DNA from: Escherichia phage VEc74 | DNA length: 64,000 nt | Reading direction: 5' to 3' (one strand) | Sequence record: MT932213.1 | Shown here: in pieces, positions 6,228 to 39,661 of the stretch | Position numbering within the stretch: the stretch's first letter is position 1 | How the letters are laid out: every line of letters begins with the position of its first letter | The notes under the pieces: model-generated | What the model was told of the DNA's origin: nothing | Databases searched by the model: none | The model's input: only the letters and a program-made list of their open reading frames with translations | Made by a program: the position numbers and the translations under genes

Positions 6228-6262
6228 TTAATAATACCACGGTTTGAACTTGTTGTAAACAA
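6228..6262 (-). promoter_or_regulatory. T4-type early promoter (-35 GTTTAC, -10 TATTAT)
   Basis: minus-strand GTTTAC (plus 6255..6260), ~18-nt spacer, TATTAT, then SD and ATG of 6024..6200. Confidence 0.45.
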
Positions 6263-28414: not shown

Positions 28415-28888
28415 TTATTTGAACGATTTAACGTACTGAATAGAACCTTTACTATTCACAAAGGCAATTTTACCATTTTTGTTATACATAGTAGCAGTAC
28501 GTTGATAGCCATAAGTTTGCTTACCAGATTGATAACCAACTAATGCAAAATTATCTTCACCCATTTTATTCTGTTTAGCGCGAATGCGTTCATGACCATG
28601 TGCCATAAGAACCTTAGCATCACCAGTTGCAATGGATCGACGAGTTTTTTCATCTTCAACTGTATTAACAAAGTCGTCAAATGAATCAAATTTAGCATGA
28701 GATTTATTATACAGTTTTCCATCTACTGCATAATTATATCCTTGTACATCCATCTCAACTTCTGTACCATCATCTAATACAGCAGTAATTTTCTGTCCTT
28801 TTTTAAATTTCAAAAGATCAGTAAAAGATTCAGCAATAATTTGAGAATTAATAGCTGCCTCAGTAATAAATTCTTGATATGTTTTCAT
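28415..28888 (-). CDS. Internal-protein-like capsid-targeted protein (CTS leader MKTYQEFITEA)
   Basis: N-terminus matches the T4 internal-protein capsid-targeting sequence with L/I-x-E cleavage context. Confidence 0.65.
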   Translation of the reverse strand: MKTYQEFITEAAINSQIIAESFTDLLKFKKGQKITAVLDDGTEVEMDVQGYNYAVDGKLYNKSHAKFDSFDDFVNTVEDEKTRRSIATGDAKVLMAHGHERIRAKQNKMGEDNFALVGYQSGKQTYGYQRTATMYNKNGKIAFVNSKGSIQYVKSFK

Positions 28889-28929
28889 GTATATCCTTTA
28901 AATGTAAATAGTTTTATTCTTTAAGTTTT

Positions 28930-28977
28930 GGACAATTCATGCGTGTGAATTGTCCGTTTCTATATTTACCCATTACC
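28930..28977 (-). repeat. Direct repeat copy 2 with perfect palindrome ggacaattca/tgaattgtcc; start codon position reads ACG
   Basis: 28947..28977 is 29/31 identical to copy 1; 28930..28955 forms a 10-bp-stem hairpin. Confidence 0.6.
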
Positions 28978-28996
28978 AGGTTCGAACTCGGCTTTA

Positions 28997-29561
28997 TTAA
29001 GAATTACCGCGGGCTGCATTAGCAACGGCGTAAGCGTACTGAACATTAGCGTCTTTAAACGTACCTTTAGAGGTATCTAGTTCTGCCTTAAAGCCACCTT
29101 TAGTCATAACCTCGGCGAATTCTTTACGGAAAGCCATTGCATCAAGACTTCTCCATGATGATTTGTGCTTGGCGAATTCAAGACCAGCGTAGTTGACAGC
29201 CTTAGCTAATTTATTATCAATAACCCATTTACCAGCTTTAGGCACAAACACCGGGCCTTTCTGTTTAGAGAACAGTTTTAAATTCCAGCGACGAAGGTCA
29301 CCGTCGGCTTTAACAAAAGCTGCGTCTAAGTTACTAGCAACAACATCCTGAATATGGCCAAATTTAAGCCCATCAACTTCAATATTTAGATCGGTACGCC
29401 AGCGAAGTCCTTCCCAAGCGAAAGCTTTAAAGTCGGAAGCCTTTGTAGCTAAGTACCGTTCAATAGGAGCCGTTTCCCGATCGATAGGTCCACTCATCTT
29501 TATTAATGCCTTTGGCCTTTTCCACAGAAGCTTCAGCGATAAATTCTTTATACGTTTTCAT
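28997..29561 (-). pseudogene. Internal-protein-like gene with frameshift between CTS leader and body (or sequencing indel)
   Basis: ATG at 29561 encodes MKTYKEFIAEASVEKAKGINKDEW... which stops after 33 codons; the 166-aa body (28997..29497) is in the -1 frame and that frame is open across the junction. Confidence 0.45.
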
Positions 29562-29577
29562 GTGTTTCCTTTAATTT

Positions 29578-29895
29578 TTATTCTTTAGGGAAGTTTTTAG
29601 AATATGCATCATAAAGCTTATTTCCAATACGGCGGAAAACTCTAGCCGCAAAACGATTTTCTGGGTTTTTAATCATGATTTGCATCATATAAGTACCCGC
29701 GTCAGAAAGAGCTTCTTCATAGTACCCATTAATTTCTTTAAGAGTCCTACGTTTACCACCAGGACCATCAACAGTGATTTTCCATTTACCTGTAGAAGTG
29801 CGACTTGGCGGCTCAACTTGTTCAATCCAGATATAACCACCTTCTACACGTTGTCCTGCAGCAGATTCTGCAATAAATTCTTGATAGGTTTTCAT
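29578..29895 (-). CDS. Internal-protein-like capsid-targeted protein (CTS leader MKTYQEFIAES)
   Basis: 105 aa, basic; CTS leader; own early promoter. Confidence 0.65.
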   Translation of the reverse strand: MKTYQEFIAESAAGQRVEGGYIWIEQVEPPSRTSTGKWKITVDGPGGKRRTLKEINGYYEEALSDAGTYMMQIMIKNPENRFAARVFRRIGNKLYDAYSKNFPKE

Positions 29896-34003: not shown

Positions 34004-34079
34004 TGGTCGAGGCAGTAGGGATCGAACCTACGACCCAGGACTTAGAAGGTCCTTGCTCTTCCTTCTGAGCTATGCCTCG
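34004..34079 (-). tRNA. tRNA-Arg (anticodon UCU)
   Basis: Hand-folded cloverleaf: acceptor CGAGGCA/TGCCTCG, anticodon loop CUUCUAA, T-loop GGTTCGATCC, encoded CCA. Confidence 0.85.
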
Positions 34080-34083
34080 TATT

Positions 34084-34158
34084 TGGCGGACGTGATAGGA
34101 TTCGAACCTATAACCAATCGCTTAACAGGCGATCGCTCTGCCATTGAGCTACACATCC
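34084..34158 (-). tRNA. tRNA-Asn (anticodon GUU)
   Basis: Acceptor GGATGTG/CACGTCC, anticodon stem ATCGC/GCGAT with loop CUGUUAA, T-loop GGTTCGAATCC, CCA. Confidence 0.85.
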
Positions 34159-34162
34159 AAAT

Positions 34163-34249
34163 TGGTGGGGAGTGGTGGAGTCGAACCACCCGAGTCGCAA
34201 TGACAATGGATTTACAGTCCACACCGCTACCTCTACGGGATAACTCCCC
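34163..34249 (-). tRNA. tRNA-Tyr (anticodon GUA), long variable arm
   Basis: Acceptor GGGGAGT/ACTCCCC, anticodon loop CUGUAAA, long variable arm, T-loop GGTTCGACTCC, CCA. Confidence 0.8.
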
Positions 34250-34259
34250 CAAATTAATT

Positions 34260-34334
34260 TGGTGGCCCTGGGTGGAATTGAACCACCATCTGGCGATTAT
34301 GAGTCGCTTGCTTGAACCTTCCAGCTACAGGGCC
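34260..34334 (-). tRNA. tRNA-Ile (anticodon CAU, T4 tRNA-Ile type; tRNA-Met not excluded)
   Basis: Acceptor GGCCCTG/CAGGGCC, anticodon loop CUCAUAA, T-loop GGTTCAATTCC, CCA. Confidence 0.8.
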
Positions 34335-34335
34335 T

Positions 34336-34411
34336 TGGTGCTGATTGACGGAATCGAACCGCCGACCTTCTCATTACAAGTGAGTTGCTCTACCTACTAA
34401 GCTAAATCAGC
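34336..34411 (-). tRNA. tRNA-Thr (anticodon UGU)
   Basis: Acceptor GCTGATT/AATCAGC, anticodon loop CUUGUAA, T-loop GGTTCGATTCC, CCA. Confidence 0.85.
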
Positions 34412-34416
34412 AAAAC

Positions 34417-34506
34417 TGGCGGAGGCGATAGGATTTGAACCTATGAGTCGCCGGAGCGACTGCCGGTTTTCAAGACCGGTGCATTAAACCACTCTGCCAC
34501 GCCTCC
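34417..34506 (-). tRNA. tRNA-Ser (anticodon UGA), long variable arm
   Basis: Acceptor GGAGGCG/CGCCTCC, anticodon stem CCGGT/ACCGG with loop CUUGAAA, long variable arm, CCA. Confidence 0.85.
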
Positions 34507-34508
34507 AG

Positions 34509-34582
34509 TCTCCGCGGCAGGATTTGAACCTGCGACATTCTGCTCCCAAAGCAGACGCTCTACCAAACTGAGCTACACGGAG
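34509..34582 (-). tRNA. tRNA-Pro (anticodon UGG), CCA not encoded
   Basis: Acceptor CTCCGTG/CGCGGAG, anticodon loop UUUGGGA, T-loop GGTTCAAATCC; discriminator followed by CU then tRNA-Ser (2-nt spacer). Confidence 0.85.
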
Positions 34583-34592
34583 TAAATTAAAT

Positions 34593-34666
<74 letters not shown>

Positions 34667-34671
34667 AAATT

Positions 34672-34758
34672 TGGTGCGAGAAGTGGGACTCGAACCCACA
34701 AGGAAATCATTCCGCAGCATTTTAAGTGCTGTGCCTTTACCAATTTGGCCATTCTCGC
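34672..34758 (-). tRNA. tRNA-Leu (anticodon UAA), long variable arm
   Basis: Acceptor GCGAGAA/TTCTCGC, anticodon stem CAGCA/TGCTG with loop CUUAAAA, long variable arm, T-loop GGTTCGAGTCC, CCA. Confidence 0.85.
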
Positions 34759-34764
34759 GCTATA

Positions 34765-35397
34765 TTATTTATTACGTGAAAAAGACTGTTCTATCAATTC
34801 TGGACACTTTCGTTCTATCCATTTTCTAGCTTTTTGTGGGCTTATACCTATTATTTTAGCAGCTTTACTAACCCATCCAAATTTAGAATAATCGATTTTA
34901 ACTAATTCTTCGTAAATTTCATCAGTTAAAATCTTTTCATTAATATTTACCAGTAAATGATATAATTTATTATCATTAGCAATTTTAATGAATCTTTTAT
35001 AGTTTCCGCCTTTACTTAAGCCTAATGAAGTAATTGCAGATGATATAGTAGCCGAATTTAATAGTGCGTTTAAAATTTCTTCATCACTAACATTATAACG
35101 CTTTTTATTATTTTTAATATTTTTACCAGCAAAAGTATCAGTTTGCGAATGGCAGTTTGGACATAATAATCTTAAATTTGATTTAAGATGATTTTTGTTA
35201 TTTCCATCAATATGGTCTAATTGCAGAACAATATGCTTATTTTGCCATTTTGAAATTTTACAAATTGCACACTCATATGGAAAAATATTTTCTTTTATTA
35301 TTTTGTCTTTCAGCTTTCCTGTACTAAAATTTGGATGTTTTCCTTCAAAAATTTCAGCTAATTTAGTATCCATAATATGATTCCCAATTATTAACAA
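34765..35397 (-). CDS. HNH homing-endonuclease-like protein (free-standing)
   Basis: HNH signature CAIC...LQLDHIDGNNKNH...NLRLLCPNCH plus C-terminal HTH-like region; stop 6 nt upstream of tRNA-Leu. Confidence 0.7.
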   Translation of the reverse strand: MLIIGNHIMDTKLAEIFEGKHPNFSTGKLKDKIIKENIFPYECAICKISKWQNKHIVLQLDHIDGNNKNHLKSNLRLLCPNCHSQTDTFAGKNIKNNKKRYNVSDEEILNALLNSATISSAITSLGLSKGGNYKRFIKIANDNKLYHLLVNINEKILTDEIYEELVKIDYSKFGWVSKAAKIIGISPQKARKWIERKCPELIEQSFSRNK

Positions 35398-35997: not shown

Positions 35998-36281
35998 GCT
36001 GCATTAATATAAGTATATTTAATACATTCAAGACTTAAAGGATTCTTGAAAATATCATATTCAAGAGGACCTTTTTCTGTTTCAATAAAGAAATCAAAAT
36101 TTACTGTATTAAATTTACGGTCTTCCTTCACTAATTTAACCTGAGAAGATGAACGGTCAATGTAAACCTTTTCAACTTCAAAACATGTTAAAATGCCATA
36201 ATCATCAATCAAGGCTTTAGCTGCTTCTTGATCATATTTATATCCATTTTCAACGGATGATACTTTCGCATAAAGAATCAT
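35991..36281 (-). CDS. Hypothetical protein
   Basis: ORF track. Confidence 0.45.
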   Translation of the reverse strand: MILYAKVSSVENGYKYDQEAAKALIDDYGILTCFEVEKVYIDRSSSQVKLVKEDRKFNTVNFDFFIETEKGPLEYDIFKNPLSLECIKYTYINAAW

Positions 36282-36283
36282 TA

Positions 36284-36667
36284 TCAGCCTTCATCAACAA
36301 TAGTATGAGTATGGGCATTTACGATTTGCCACCAATCAAAGCGATTAGAACCATACATCGGTTTGTTTTCATTTTCTTTGATAATATCACGGAGTTCATC
36401 TTCGGTAGCGGCTTTCGCGATTAAATCAGCATATCCACCACGAGGATAATAATTATCACCTGCAAAAAGTAAAAAATTTGGTGTAATATTATTGAACTCT
36501 TCAAGAGTAATAACTGTTCCTGATGGTAGTTGAACAATCTCTACATAGTTATATCCTAATTTTTGAGCAGCATCTACTGCTTCAAGCAGAGTATCATGAG
36601 CCCGTCCTATTTGGCAATTTGGCTTTTTAGATGGATTAGCCTGATAATCCGCGTACACTTTATACAT
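36284..36667 (-). CDS. Hypothetical protein (start at ATG 36667 with AGGTGA SD)
   Basis: ORF track 36284..36706 trimmed. Confidence 0.45.
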   Translation of the reverse strand: MYKVYADYQANPSKKPNCQIGRAHDTLLEAVDAAQKLGYNYVEIVQLPSGTVITLEEFNNITPNFLLFAGDNYYPRGGYADLIAKAATEDELRDIIKENENKPMYGSNRFDWWQIVNAHTHTIVDEG

Positions 36668-36668
36668 T

Positions 36669-36854
36669 CTATTCACCTTTAGAAATTTTATCCATAACGA
36701 TAGCAATTAAACCAATTAAAAATGCTACTACAAGTGAAAACACATTTTCTGCTGTAGTTAATAATCCGCATATAAATCCAACAAACATTGAAAAACTAAA
36801 AGCGGAAGCAGAAATTGCAATAGCAGCATTTCGAATTAATTCACAACGTTTCAT
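36669..36854 (-). CDS. Small membrane protein (61 aa, two hydrophobic helices)
   Basis: AAIAISASAFSFSMFVGFICGLL and FSLVVAFLIGLIAIV; own early promoter and GAGGAG SD. Confidence 0.5.
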   Translation of the reverse strand: MKRCELIRNAAIAISASAFSFSMFVGFICGLLTTAENVFSLVVAFLIGLIAIVMDKISKGE

Positions 36855-36879
36855 TTTATTCTCCTCAGTAGTTGATAGG

Positions 36880-36915
36880 GTAATAGTATCACAACTAAAA
36901 CCCTATGTAAACAAT
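36880..36915 (-). promoter_or_regulatory. T4-type early promoter (cassette 1)
   Basis: minus-strand GTTTAC (plus 36907..36912), TGATACTAT; leader ...CAACTACTGAGGAGAATAAAATG. Confidence 0.5.
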
Positions 36916-37140
36916 TTATTCAACACCAGCGGCTTTCAAAAGTTTTTTAAGATTGGCAACACCTTGAGCAGAAAATGTGACCTTGCCACCTTTTTCACTG
37001 ATAGAACCAACCAATTTAGCAAGTTTATCATTAGGAATTTTTTTAAAATCAGACAATGTTCCATCAAAGGTTTTTGAAACAAAAGGCAGTTCGTCTTCGC
37101 GTCTTTTAGCTTCTACAATAAATTCTTTAGATGTTTTCAT
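36916..37140 (-). CDS. Internal-protein-like capsid-targeted protein (CTS MKTSKEFIVEA)
   Basis: 74 aa, Lys-rich; CTS leader; own promoter. Confidence 0.6.
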   Translation of the reverse strand: MKTSKEFIVEAKRREDELPFVSKTFDGTLSDFKKIPNDKLAKLVGSISEKGGKVTFSAQGVANLKKLLKAAGVE

Positions 37141-37164
37141 TTTATTCTCCTCAGTAGTTGATAG

Positions 37165-37200
37165 GGTAATAATATCACTACCCCATCTAAAAGTAAACGG
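37165..37200 (-). promoter_or_regulatory. T4-type early promoter (cassette 2)
   Basis: minus-strand GTTTAC (plus 37193..37198), TGATATTAT. Confidence 0.5.
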
Positions 37201-37208
37201 TTTATAAA

Positions 37209-37517
37209 CTATTTTATTCCGCGTGATGCAATTGTGTTCTGCCGTTTAACGCCAGTTTGTTTAAAGTCATGATTGTCGATTTGATCGGTACGAGCAACTC
37301 CGAATGATGATTTGATCTTAGCTTTAGATCCTTTAGTTATAGAAATAAACATCTCGGAAGCCCCTTTCTTAAAGTCCGAGGCGATTACTTCAACGCCGTT
37401 CTTAGCAAGTGACTTCAGAATTGCCTCCGCATACTCATCATCAAGACTCGCCTGAGTATTAATAACGAATGTCTTTGGCGCAGCCGCTTCATTGATAAAT
37501 TCTTTAAATGTTTTCAT
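37209..37517 (-). CDS. Internal-protein-like capsid-targeted protein (CTS MKTFKEFINEA)
   Basis: 102 aa; CTS leader; own promoter. Confidence 0.6.
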   Translation of the reverse strand: MKTFKEFINEAAAPKTFVINTQASLDDEYAEAILKSLAKNGVEVIASDFKKGASEMFISITKGSKAKIKSSFGVARTDQIDNHDFKQTGVKRQNTIASRGIK

Positions 37518-37539
37518 TTTATTTTCCTAATTAATTTTG

Positions 37540-37580
37540 ATGAGATAATAGTATCACTACCCTATTTAAAAGTAAACTCA
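37540..37580 (-). promoter_or_regulatory. T4-type early promoter (cassette 3)
   Basis: minus-strand GTTTAC (plus 37572..37577), TGATACTAT. Confidence 0.5.
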
Positions 37581-37850
37581 TTTTAAATAAATTGCGTATT
37601 TTTTATAACCCGCTGACTCATGACGAAGACCCTTATCATTAGCAAAACGCTCAATGTTGTTAATTTGATTCTGATCAAGTTCAGAGATGTCAAACACGAA
37701 AAAGTTACGTTTGTTACCAACTGTTATATAGTCAGTTAAATCAATATCATATAGGTAATTGATGTCAGCAATCAAAGTCTTGACAGCTTTGCTAATTTTT
37801 ACTTTTTCGTTAAAAGCAGCTTCAGCAATAAATTCTTGATACGTTTTCAT
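37578..37850 (-). CDS. Internal-protein-like capsid-targeted protein (CTS MKTYQEFIAEA)
   Basis: ORF track 37578..37910 trimmed to ATG 37850 where the canonical CTS begins, with GAGGAG SD. Confidence 0.6.
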   Translation of the reverse strand: MKTYQEFIAEAAFNEKVKISKAVKTLIADINYLYDIDLTDYITVGNKRNFFVFDISELDQNQINNIERFANDKGLRHESAGYKKYAIYLK

Positions 37851-37874
37851 TTTATTCTCCTCAGTAGTTGATAG

Positions 37875-37912
37875 GATAATAGTATCACTACTAAAACCCC
37901 GTGTAAACAACT
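37875..37912 (-). promoter_or_regulatory. T4-type early promoter (cassette 4)
   Basis: minus-strand GTTTAC (plus 37903..37908), TGATACTAT. Confidence 0.5.
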
Positions 37913-37920
37913 TTGTGAAA

Positions 37921-38178
37921 TTATTTTAAATCTTCTAATCGTTTCTTCATCTTAGAACCGTTCTTAGCGATTTCGCCTGCATCAGAGCATAATGCTAAAA
38001 GCGCTTTAACTTTAGTTTGGTCTCCTTTAAAAGATGAAGGATCAACAGCAGCAGCAAGTTCTTTAATACGAGAGAAAAGACGCTCAGCTTCAGCTAAAGC
38101 CATTCCAAGCTTTACTTCCATACCGTGGGAAGATTCAGTAATAGTAGTTTTTGTAGCAAACTCTTTGAAAGTTTTCAT
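37921..38178 (-). CDS. Internal-protein-like capsid-targeted protein (variant CTS MKTFKEFATK...ITES)
   Basis: 85 aa; N-terminus related to CTS; own promoter. Confidence 0.55.
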   Translation of the reverse strand: MKTFKEFATKTTITESSHGMEVKLGMALAEAERLFSRIKELAAAVDPSSFKGDQTKVKALLALCSDAGEIAKNGSKMKKRLEDLK

Positions 38179-38204
38179 TTTATTTTCCTAATTAATTTTG
38201 ATGA

Positions 38205-38240
38205 GGTAATAGTATCACTACCTCATCAGCATGTAAACAA
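38205..38240 (-). promoter_or_regulatory. T4-type early promoter (cassette 5)
   Basis: minus-strand GTTTAC (plus 38233..38238), TGATACTAT. Confidence 0.5.
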
Positions 38241-38250
38241 CTTTGTGAAA

Positions 38251-38935
<685 letters not shown>

Positions 38936-38936
<1 letters not shown>

Positions 38937-39661
38937 TATAGTACCTTTAGTGTATTTTTAATTTTAGAAAAAAGTTCTTCAAGAGAACCATCGTTTGTAA
39001 TTACTAAATCGCCATCACGAATTGGCAATCCAGCTTCTGTAATATGTGTATCATTGGATTTTTGACCAGGACGAACTACATGAATTACTGTAGCACCCAT
39101 CGCCCTAGCCGCATCCATTTCATGATCTTGACGGGTATCAGGAACGATATAATAATCATAACCTGAGTTAAATTTATCAAGATAATCTAAAGCAAATAAT
39201 TTTACCCAGTACATGCGGTCGAAGTTATTAACAATCAAATCCGTACCTAGGGCTTGCATCAGACGACGGACTGACCATTGATCTTCAATATTATTTATAA
39301 CGTCAATAATCTTGTTAAATGCTACGGAATTAACTGATTCTTGTCCTTCGTCATCAAAAACAAACACACCTTTAATTGGGCTTTTACCATTAAGATAGCA
39401 AAATGCTTGTTCCATAATGGTGATTACTTCTAATTTAGTCAGATTTAAATTAGTCTCACGATCATAGTCAATTCCTTCAAACTCTTTACGAGTTAAGCAA
39501 GGATAGTCAGTGTTTGCTGCAAATACTCCCCATGCATAAGCCAATGCATCCTTAATAGGACCAGCAAGTTGGTATTTAATTGCAGAATAATTGCTCATGA
39601 TAAAATCAGCAGTAGTATCTTTTCCACTACGCTTTACACCGCTTAAAAAGATTAGTTTCAT
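38936..39661 (-). CDS. 1: Deoxynucleoside monophosphate kinase
   Basis: ATG 39661 (GAGGAG SD) gives 241 aa; P-loop LSGVKRSGKDT. Confidence 0.85.

Follow-up and report, generated by a model that had tools for sequence, protein, structure and literature searches.

Internal proteins (IPs) of the T-even phages have been reviewed as diverse defence proteins with only a capsid-targeting sequence (CTS) in common, and about 1000 IP molecules are embedded in the DNA of a T4 head (PMC3012670). T4 Ip1, Ip2 and Ip3 each inhibit one distinct variant of the GmrSD type IV restriction enzymes, with no cross-protection (Silas 2025, PMC12373910); Ip2 and Ip3 are the inhibitors of GmrSD-ECOR21 and GmrSD-ECOR17. 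The rules for the CTS assign targeting to residues 4 and 7 and processing to residues 8 and 10, and foreign proteins have been packaged in T4 with ten CTS residues alone (PMC9026906).

The IP genes occupy two polymorphic loci, one between gene 57B and trna.4 (the same position in T4, RB32 and RB15) and the other at e/denV. For phage RB15 the first locus is represented by GenBank entry Z35082, entitled ‘Bacteriophage RB15 DNA for Ip5, Ip9, Ip7, Ip8’ (Repoila, Tetart, Bouet & Krisch 1994, EMBO J 13:4181). According to the papers that cite it, the 1994 work reads the locus as one of packaged and injected proteins with a host-range or anti-defence role. Repeated promoter cassettes with weak stem-loops at the IP loci, and their role as recombination linkers, have already been published (Arbiol 2010, PMC2839356), and the module-shuffling mechanism is also described by Comeau (2014, PMC4122927). 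As a sequence feature the array of Escherichia phage VEc74 therefore brings nothing new: locus, names, CTS, cassettes and the anti-defence hypothesis were published from 1994 on and extended in 2007, 2010 and 2025.

Gene content of the VEc74 array and its relation to RB15

The window analysed here is the whole 64,000-nt stretch of VEc74 DNA (MT932213.1). The ORF list has five short minus-strand genes running from gene 57B to trna.4, each with its own copy of a promoter and leader (Table 1), which bears out the description in the earlier note of four CTS genes and a fifth short gene, each behind an early promoter/leader copy. The T4 annotation agrees with the same note in placing a single gene, ipI (its product, IPI*, inhibits GmrS/GmrD of E. 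coli CT596), between 57B and trna.4; the slot is shared, with one gene in T4 versus four ip genes in VEc74.

Table 1. Features of the 57B/trna.4 array, its flanks and the second IP locus in the VEc74 window (a slash in a protein sequence marks the predicted cleavage site)
Feature	Position	Strand	Remarks
gene 57B	38251..38709	-	upstream flank of array; ORF matches RB32 and T4 57B annotation
cassette c1 (ip5)	38179..38238	-	early promoter, -10 TACTAT; type-B leader AAAATTAATTAGGAAAATAAA
ip5	37921..38178	-	85 aa; MKTFKEFATKTTITE/S; 100% identical to RB15 Ip5; phrog_3499 ‘internal head protein’, E = 1e-49; predicted mature protein 70 aa, pI 9.2
cassette c2 (ip9)	37851..37908	-	early promoter; type-A leader CAACTACTGAGGAGAATAAA
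ip9	37578..37850	-	90 aa; CTS MKTYQEFIAE/A; 97% identical to RB15 Ip9 (P0023); phrog_7673, E = 4e-55; predicted mature protein 80 aa, pI 8.2
cassette c3 (ip7)	37518..37577	-	early promoter; type-B leader; inverted repeat broken
ip7	37209..37517	-	102 aa; CTS MKTFKEFINE/A; 100% identical to RB15 Ip7; phrog_2667, E = 2e-41; predicted mature protein 92 aa, pI 9.7
cassette c4 (ip8)	37141..37198	-	early promoter, -10 TATTAT; type-A leader
ip8	36916..37140	-	74 aa; CTS MKTSKEFIVE/A; phrog_8765 ‘internal virion protein’, E = 8e-23; predicted mature protein 64 aa, pI 9.8
cassette c5 (trna.4)	36855..36912	-	early promoter; type-A leader; inverted repeat ATAGGGT and ACCCTAT; equals T4 trna.4 promoter
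trna.4	36669..36854	-	61 aa; two hydrophobic segments; 60/61 residues (98%) as in T4 Trna.4; phrog_1692, unknown function
trna.3 homologue	36284..36667	-	downstream flank; ORF matches RB32 and T4 annotation
second IP locus	28415..29895	-	downstream of lysozyme gene e; CTS scan; phrog_3966, phrog_3155, DUF7412
105-aa CTS protein (second locus)	29578-29895	-	CTS scan
ipIII homologue, frameshifted (second locus)	28997-29561	-	17-bp deletion relative to T4 ipIII
157-aa CTS protein (second locus)	28415-28888	-	CTS scan

On its sequence, the locus is almost certainly the hyperplastic ipI-type internal-protein locus of Tequatrovirus (T-even phages) in the RB15 configuration, 57B-ip5-ip9-ip7-ip8-trna.4, and hence an already known array, with the named genes ip5, ip9, ip7 and ip8 arranged as in the RB15 sequence published in 1994. 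This identity taken together with packaging and injection of the Ip proteins is highly probable. The whole array is colinear with Z35082 (99% coverage and 96.5% identity by megablast; 98% mean column identity in a MAFFT alignment), and the four Ip proteins are about 93% to 100% identical to their RB15 namesakes. They fall into four different PHROGs, each annotated as internal head or virion protein (E = 1e-23 to 1e-55). Ip5, Ip9 and Ip7 are annotated at the same position in the RB32 and T2 records, while ip8, absent from RB32, has homologues in 107 phage records. All four genes together were found in no complete genome of a 50,697-record phage set. For ip9 we took as the start the ATG at 37850 behind the leader, as annotated in both RB15 and RB32; the ORF itself is open to a TTG at 37910.

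The mature bodies of the four Ip proteins are mutually unrelated, as had been claimed from the letters alone: no pairwise similarity was significant (best E = 0.064), and the four PHROGs are distinct. The earlier note had also named a contrary outcome, in which all four bodies would turn out to be homologues of IPI, IPII or IPIII; we found no mature-body homology of Ip5, Ip7, Ip8 or Ip9 to IPI*, IPII or IPIII, likeness being confined to the propeptide (for Ip5 and T4 IPI, to residues 1-22). The fifth gene, described before as encoding a 61-aa two-helix membrane protein, does have this size and two hydrophobic segments in the hydropathy profile. It can be named further: judged by its sequence it is trna.4, a conserved T4 gene outside the variable set, whose product lacks a CTS and does not count among the internal proteins.

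Searches for more distant relatives gave no functional or mechanistic clue from sequence or fold for Ip7 and Ip9. No Pfam or NCBIfam family scored above threshold for any of the five array proteins, and a PDB sequence search with the four Ip proteins gave nothing below E = 0.02, all matches being implausible. An AlphaFold2 model of Ip9 (pLDDT 77) has a small alpha/beta fold with no significant neighbour in the PDB by Foldseek. The model of Ip7 (pLDDT 67) has a beta-alpha-beta-beta-alpha core and a basic C-terminal tail, predicted with low confidence but conserved; Foldseek against the PDB returned only generic ferredoxin/ACT/RRM-like matches (TM <= 0.5). With nothing at E <= 0.001, no functional inference was drawn from the fold matches of either protein. 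A literature search on the names Ip5, Ip7, Ip8 and Ip9 returned only unrelated papers.

Promoter/leader cassettes and the exchange of modules

The pattern GTTTAC-N15-TGATAYTATTA has exactly five matches in the array (at 38238, 37908, 37577, 37198 and 36912) and one occurrence, with one mismatch, elsewhere in the 64 kb; chance alone would give about 0.13, and none of 100 shuffled sequences reached 6. The aligned cassettes have 82% mean column identity and carry the features of T4 early promoters, namely a GTTTAC -35 element, a 17-nt spacer, a TG-extended -10 element and an A/T-rich upstream region. Their leaders come in two subtypes, ...CAACTACTGAGGAGAATAAAATG in front of ip9, ip8 and trna.4 (type A) and ...CAAAATTAATTAGGAAAATAAAATG in front of ip5 and ip7 (type B). 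Thus the ‘near-identical’ copies of promoter and leader noticed earlier are indeed five cassettes, with the reservation that the leaders are of two kinds. The late-promoter consensus (TATAAATA) has no match inside the array, so that the protein needed when proheads assemble would have to be stable early product or come from upstream read-through.

In c1 a 9-bp inverted repeat, GATGAGGTA and TACCTCATC, brackets the -10 element (DNA hairpin of -8.1 kcal/mol, z = -3.6). From c1 to c5 the hairpin z-scores were -3.6, -1.2, +0.8, -1.7 and -2.0: one of the five clearly exceeds the shuffled sequences, two are marginal and two do not exceed them. We considered the -10 inverted repeat as a conserved covarying structure and rejected it; within the spacer, the left arm of c2 and c5 is placed differently from that of c1, c3 and c4, and folding fails in two of the five copies. 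Two subtypes of cassette, with chimeras between them, account better for the pattern, and c3 looks like one of these chimeras, type A in its left half and type B in its right. A terminator scan found no intrinsic terminator between the array genes, the stems being AT-rich and no T-run following them; hence the stem-loops do not look like classical terminators, and a terminator function for them seems doubtful. An Rfam scan of positions 36000-39000 gave only a sub-threshold chance match.

Repeated units of a promoter, a stem-loop and a Shine-Dalgarno sequence, flanking small non-essential genes, are also described as PeSL cassettes in RB49/phi1 and further T4-like phages (Arbiol 2010, PMC2839356; Comeau 2014, PMC4122927). 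The stem-loop typical of the RB49/phi1 type is stable, mostly G/C-rich, and serves as a terminator. Like the IP cassettes, they are recombination linkers for insertion and deletion of modules, and the stem-loop overlaps or brackets the -10 element. The IP cassettes differ: their promoters are T4-type early ones, and their stems are weaker, richer in A/T and free of polyG/polyC. The two kinds of cassette are analogues, not homologues, according to the authors (Arbiol 2010, PMC2839356).

Each gene of the array is self-contained, with a T4 early promoter, a short conserved leader with a Shine-Dalgarno sequence and an ATG; in the ip genes, four in number, there follows a conserved stretch coding for the propeptide, and then an unrelated body. 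As comparison shows, the repeats of ~60 bp formed by promoter and leader double as linkers for homologous recombination, by which ip modules are inserted, deleted and swapped between co-infecting phages and between both IP loci, giving rise to phage-specific combinations. Sequence comparison found what we read as fresh footprints of such shuffling in the VEc74 locus. Cassettes c4 and c5 form the borders of the indel that sets RB32 apart from VEc74 at ip8; it amounts to an exact removal of the ip8 module, and the promoter between ip7 and trna.4 in RB32 is a chimera with a c4-like 5′ half and a c5-like 3′ half. The promoter and leader of ip5 (c1) are nearly identical to those of T4 ipI, and the two genes have the same long type of propeptide; divergence begins directly after the cleavage site, the mature bodies are unrelated, and the replacement is bounded by c1 and the propeptide. 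Ip5 paralogues that are ~47% identical and adjoin the endolysin gene occur in 228 records.

The comparison with RB15 adds to these footprints. The two loci are alike in their 57B/trna.4 flanks, in the four genes and their order and in the structure of the cassettes; the differences are clustered at ip8 and trna.4, in their leaders and opening codons. RB15 has CAAAACAAAACACCCAAATGGAAACTAAAATG and MKTYQKF where VEc74 has a type-A leader and MKTSKEF, and the differences between the two Ip8 proteins (about 93% identity, counted by eye in the translated alignment) cluster in codons 4-6. These differences are consistent with gene conversion between cassettes.

Capsid targeting and possible targets of the Ip proteins

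In an alignment of the six IPs of the VEc74 window with T4 IPI, IPII and IPIII, residues M1, K2, T3, E6 and F7 are invariant. That four of the array proteins open with the T4 CTS, as the earlier note put it, stands in that all four have MKT..EF, and needs two amendments: Ip8 has a serine at position 4 in place of an aromatic residue, and the propeptide of Ip5 is of the longer IPI type, not of the 10-residue IPII/IPIII type. Position 4 is F in Ip5 and Ip7 and Y in Ip9, and the serine of Ip8 deviates from MKT(Y/F)(Q/K)EF at a position reported to matter for targeting (PMC9026906), which would count against packaging of this protein. The gp21-type site (L/I)-x-E is present as IVE in Ip8, INE in Ip7 and IAE in Ip9 at residues 8-10, and as I-T-E at residues 13-15 of Ip5, in parallel to ITE at residues 17-19 of T4 IPI. 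Ip9 has exactly the same CTS as T4 IPII and IPIII.

From T4 work the course of events may be pictured as follows. Host sigma-70 RNA polymerase would transcribe the modules straight after infection, and the MKT(Y/F/S)(Q/K)EF propeptide would direct the products to the prohead's scaffolding core. The prohead protease gp21 would then cut off the propeptide after I-x-E (in Ip5 after I-T-E, at residue 15), leaving small and basic mature proteins (6.9-9.9 kDa, pI 8.2-9.8 as predicted) that would remain in the head with the DNA and enter the next host with it. By analogy with T4, the injected proteins would most probably inhibit, specifically and in a stoichiometric and immediate manner, host nucleases or other defences directed against glucosyl-hmC DNA. 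From the sequences and this analogy we consider it very likely that Ip5, Ip7, Ip8 and Ip9 are packaged in the head and injected. An anti-defence role for the four is, by the same analogy, rather probable, and a GmrSD-type enzyme as their target is a tentative assignment. The picture of an arsenal of injected effectors with different specificities, drawn before from the letters alone, matches the published reading (Repoila 1994, as cited by later papers; Silas 2025, PMC12373910), the function of these four proteins following by inference.

A test of ip4-10 against a panel of GmrSD enzymes gave no reproducible inhibition (Silas 2025, PMC12373910); apparent interactions of ip7 with CLS_011 and of ip8 with CLS_018/019 failed to reproduce (PMC12373910 Supplementary Fig. 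9). This favours a reading in which the four are injected effectors against targets other than GmrSD-type type IV restriction, such as other modification-dependent nucleases, abortive-infection systems or host components of the nucleoid or of transcription. The absence of similarity to Ip1, Ip2 and Ip3 points the same way, as does the occurrence of the Ip9 domain in Kagunavirus and in roughly 150-kb myoviruses, for which hmC DNA is not known. We nevertheless regard this reading as rather unlikely, since all three characterised IPs target GmrSD enzymes; moreover, the GmrSD family is very diverse and was sampled in 15 groups (PMC12373910), so that GmrSD variants outside the panel are the simplest expectation. 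T2, whose record is annotated with ip5 and ip7, would on our reading be restricted by GmrSD-ECOR17 and GmrSD-ECOR21 (Silas 2025, PMC12373910); in that case neither enzyme would be the target of Ip5 or Ip7.

A further conjecture, which we rate as possible but improbable, is that Ip5, Ip7, Ip8 and Ip9, once injected, inhibit defences beyond the GmrSD enzymes tested and that IP bodies are recruited from a wider pool of small phage proteins by grafting of a CTS. The Ip9 body has relatives without a CTS in Kagunavirus, a siphovirus, and among other small proteins, and the domain is also internal to an 861-aa protein of the roughly 150-kb myoviruses, from which it would follow that the activity of Ip9 does not depend on T-even hmC DNA or on injection. 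Were this so, mapping the target of the relatives without a CTS would reveal a new and broadly used anti-host activity.

It is unlikely that the four, once packaged, act mainly as generic basic DNA-associated head proteins with no specific host target, serving in charge neutralisation, DNA packing, help in ejection or protection of the entering end, and diversified by neutral, cassette-driven turnover. Their small size and basic character, the abundance of IPs within the DNA of the T4 head and the negative panel tests of ip4-10 would all fit such a role. Against it, each of the three T4 IPs has an enzyme target of its own, specific and without overlap (PMC12373910), and unrelated bodies, together with the differing predicted folds of Ip7 and Ip9, are unlike what a shared structural role would give. 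Each family is also well conserved across hundreds of phages (an alignment of the Ip7 family has 44 invariant positions, the C-terminal tail included), which argues for selection on each Ip body.

That MKT..EF is kept mainly as part of a recombination and translation-initiation cassette, at least some of the products being early cytoplasmic accessory proteins of the producing cell, would agree with the extension of inter-cassette DNA homology from the promoter to the first codons, with the ATGAAA that opens all five genes (trna.4, not an IP gene, included), with the Ip9 bodies lacking a CTS and with promoters that are early and not late, and is nonetheless very improbable: ten CTS residues are enough for packaging in T4 (PMC9026906), the cassette alone does not impose a CTS, since trna.4 has the one without the other, and the processing positions I8 and E10 are fixed while position 9 (V, N or A) and the DNA vary, which argues for selection on the propeptide at the protein level.

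Returning to packaged and injected anti-defence proteins as the preferred reading, knowledge of the targets of Ip5, Ip7, Ip8 and Ip9 would help in host-range prediction, and phage-therapy candidates of the genus differ mainly in such accessory modules. T4 Ip2 and Ip3, which are likewise basic and are packaged and injected, have bodies unrelated to those of the four array proteins and the 10-residue CTS found in Ip9. The counterpart of their locus in VEc74 is the second IP locus, with its frameshifted ipIII homologue. With four IPs at 57B/trna.4 and a further two, intact, at the second locus, VEc74 makes a convenient, if unsurprising, natural test case.

Array layout and its known relatives

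The array at 36669-38240 is a known locus, gene names and gene order included. Its genes all lie on the minus strand, and the organization described in the earlier note proved accurate apart from small corrections. The window belongs to Tequatrovirus; the 21 kb adjoining the array have 97.9% identity with phage PP01. The array is colinear with the RB15 record Z35082.1, 'Bacteriophage RB15 DNA for Ip5, Ip9, Ip7, Ip8', whose note has the record running from the end of 57B to the start of tRNA.4, i.e. the same flanks. The two sequences align with 99% coverage and 96.5% identity (megablast; 98% mean column identity with MAFFT). At the protein level, identity to RB15 is 100% for Ip5 and Ip7, 97% for Ip9 and ∼93% for Ip8, with the Ip8 differences bunched in codons 4-6.

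Features of the array, its flanks and other window loci (c1-c5, promoter and leader cassettes; slash, predicted cleavage site; last column, phage records with a tblastn match)
Feature	Coordinates	Strand	Product	Remark	Records
57B	38251-38709	minus		upstream flank	
cassette c1	38179-38238	minus			
ip5	37921-38178	minus	85 aa	N-terminus MKTFKEFATKTTITE/S	496
cassette c2	37851-37908	minus			
ip9	37578-37850	minus	90 aa	N-terminus MKTYQEFIAE/A	192
cassette c3	37518-37577	minus			
ip7	37209-37517	minus	102 aa	N-terminus MKTFKEFINE/A	283
cassette c4	37141-37198	minus			
ip8	36916-37140	minus	74 aa	N-terminus MKTSKEFIVE/A	107
cassette c5	36855-36912	minus			
trna.4	36669-36854	minus	61 aa	two hydrophobic segments	
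trna.3	36284-36667	minus		downstream flank	
HNH-type endonuclease-like ORF	34765-35397		210 aa	abuts tRNA-Leu	
tRNA cluster	34004-35397	minus		nine tRNAs	
CTS protein	29578-29895	minus	105 aa	intact; phrog_3966	
ipIII homologue	28997-29561	minus		disrupted	
CTS protein	28415-28888	minus	157 aa	intact; Pfam DUF7412, phrog_3155	
near-match to cassette motif	6229-6260	minus		GTTTAC-N15-TGGTATTATTA	

Among other T-even phages, RB32 has Ip5, Ip9, Ip7 and tRNA.4 annotated at the same site, with notes citing a flanking 43-bp direct repeat, and the T2 record carries annotated ip7 and ip5, whereas T4 has one gene, ipI, in the slot where the window has four. The component genes are common and the four-gene combination is uncommon: among phage records searched by megablast, only the RB15 fragment has all four together. 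The fifth gene, noted earlier as encoding a 61-aa two-helix membrane protein, has a 61-aa product with two hydrophobic segments; it is trna.4 (60 of 61 residues identical to T4 Trna.4), a conserved adjacent gene that has the cassette in common with the ip genes and stands outside the variable set. The four internal proteins (IPs) match one PHROG each, all different and all annotated as internal head or virion protein, in agreement with the claim that their bodies are unrelated; no Pfam or NCBIfam family was found for Ip5, Ip7, Ip8 or Ip9.

Promoter cassettes and footprints of module shuffling

Judged from the sequence, the array is made up of five early transcription units, each autonomous. 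All five cassettes (mean column identity when aligned, 82%) contain an exact match to GTTTAC-N15-TGATAYTATTA; elsewhere in the 64 kb this motif has one further site, with one mismatch, where shuffles expect 0.13 matches. That near-match presumably serves a different gene as a common T4-type early promoter. A generic sigma-70 scan recovered four of the five promoters, each with TG ahead of the −10. The claim of an early cassette for each gene thus stands; the leaders form two subtypes, type A (CAACTACTGAGGAGAATAAAATG) upstream of ip9, ip8 and trna.4 and type B (CAAAATTAATTAGGAAAATAAAATG) upstream of ip5 and ip7. The former three contain GAGGAG, with the GGAG motif inside; the latter two have AGGAAAA instead. 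The T4 RegB endoribonuclease cuts GGAG within early Shine-Dalgarno regions, and mRNA lifetimes could differ between the two groups.

The −10 is bracketed by an inverted repeat. Folded as single-stranded DNA, the c1 copy is strong (−8.1 kcal/mol, z = −3.6) and the copies in c5 (z = −2.0) and c4 (z = −1.7) are moderate, whereas c2 and c3 have a weak fold or none; a terminator scan found no T-run after the stem-loops. The literature on IP loci describes 'PeSL-like' promoter-plus-stem-loop repeats, proposes that these drive and confine IP shuffling, and counts more than 30 IP variants (PMC2839356; PMC4122927); there, Arbiol et al. treat the repeats as PeSL analogues with T4 early promoters and weaker AT-rich stem-loops (PMC2839356). 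Since the weak, variable stem-loops seen here match this description, we do not count them as an independent finding. No late promoter consensus occurs inside the array, so that protein present at head assembly would come from a persisting early-made stock or from read-through.

Several junctions bear marks of shuffling. In RB32, the promoter between ip7 and trna.4 has its 5′ half equal to window c4 and its 3′ half to c5, indicating precise removal of the ip8 module. T4 ipI and ip5 have promoter, leader and propeptide in common and diverge directly past the cleavage site. The differences between the window and RB15 lie mostly in the ip8 and trna.4 leaders, which in the window have become identical to the ip9 leader, suggesting gene conversion. 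Cassette c3 seems to be chimeric, with its promoter half from type A and its leader half from type B, a combination that disrupts its inverted repeat. In 228 phage records, paralogues of Ip5 (∼47% identity) adjoin the endolysin gene at the second IP locus. In Escherichia phage OLB35 (MH992122.1, ∼75912-76199; homologue P0014), the annotated 77-aa 'ip7 protein' joins Ip7 residues ∼29-72 to Ip9 residues ∼59-90, an apparent intragenic recombinant of two unrelated ip genes.

Processing, function and origin of the internal proteins

Four of the five products carry the capsid-targeting sequence (CTS), as noted earlier: M1, K2, T3, E6 and F7 are present in all four and invariant in an alignment of nine IPs. 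The I-x-E motif occupies residues 8-10 in Ip7, Ip8 and Ip9; the Ip5 propeptide is longer, of IPI type, and closes with I-T-E at residue 15. The predicted mature proteins are of 6.9-9.9 kDa with pI 8.2-9.8. Packaging needs just ten CTS residues, with positions 4 and 7 serving targeting and 8 and 10 processing (PMC9026906). By analogy with T4, the CTS would send the four IPs into the prohead core, where the prohead protease gp21 would cut the propeptides; the cleaved proteins would be kept with the DNA in the head, then injected, and would act at once on some host defence. This anti-defence interpretation, proposed in the earlier note, is the accepted one for such proteins. IPI* blocks GmrS/GmrD (PMC3012670); Ip2 and Ip3 each inhibit one further GmrSD variant, with no cross-protection, and ip4-10 gave no reproducible interaction with a GmrSD panel in the same 2025 study, the apparent ip7/CLS_011 and ip8/CLS_018/019 hits not being repeatable (PMC12373910).

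Structure prediction and remote-homology search, the check proposed earlier, was carried through to models of Ip7 and Ip9 and gave no functional clue. PDB sequence searches with the four IPs returned no credible match. The Ip7 model has a beta-alpha-beta-beta-alpha core and a conserved basic tail of low confidence (pLDDT 67), with generic ferredoxin/ACT-like neighbours only; the Ip9 model is a small alpha/beta domain (pLDDT 77) for which the fold search found no PDB neighbour. Both families are shallow (14 clusters for Ip7 and 17 for Ip9 at 90% identity, in a database of 5.8 billion sequences), and all source names given are T4-like phages. Distant relatives of the Ip9 body, some with a CTS-like leader and others with no CTS, were recovered when 1.8 billion representatives were searched with a profile. 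The latter include a 73-aa ORF of a Kagunavirus (siphovirus BCH953P1, OZ035805.1; L005:2507-2728). Other small CTS-less proteins also match the mature body (∼residues 18-90), and in an 861-aa protein (phrog_3867; function unknown) from ∼150-kb myoviruses of Salmonella, Escherichia, Klebsiella and Dickeya the Ip9-body domain spans residues 663-733; the protein homologues concerned are P0033, P0034, P0038 and P0040-P0043. The coexistence of CTS-bearing and CTS-less relatives points to IP bodies as recruited domains that had a CTS grafted onto them.

The second locus and the tRNA cluster

T-even phages are described as having two polymorphic IP loci and many ip genes recognised via the signal sequence (PMC12373910); for such statements on the IP loci, Repoila et al. 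(1994) is the work consistently cited. Downstream of the lysozyme gene e, the window has an ipIII homologue that lacks 17 bp present in T4 ipIII, the deletion lying between two short repeats, AAACGGCT and AAACAGCT. Its frame stops after the CTS and 22 residues, leaving a 166-aa ORF without a CTS; the gene is either a pseudogene or the result of a sequencing error. It is flanked by the intact 157-aa and 105-aa CTS proteins, which bring the window total to six intact IPs and one disrupted; the promoters of these two genes do not match the strict ipI-side cassette motif. The tRNA cluster includes tRNA-Asn and tRNA-Tyr, absent in T4. ARAGORN found no tRNA-Gln in the cluster, and the HNH-type endonuclease-like ORF lies at the position of T4's tRNA-Gln.
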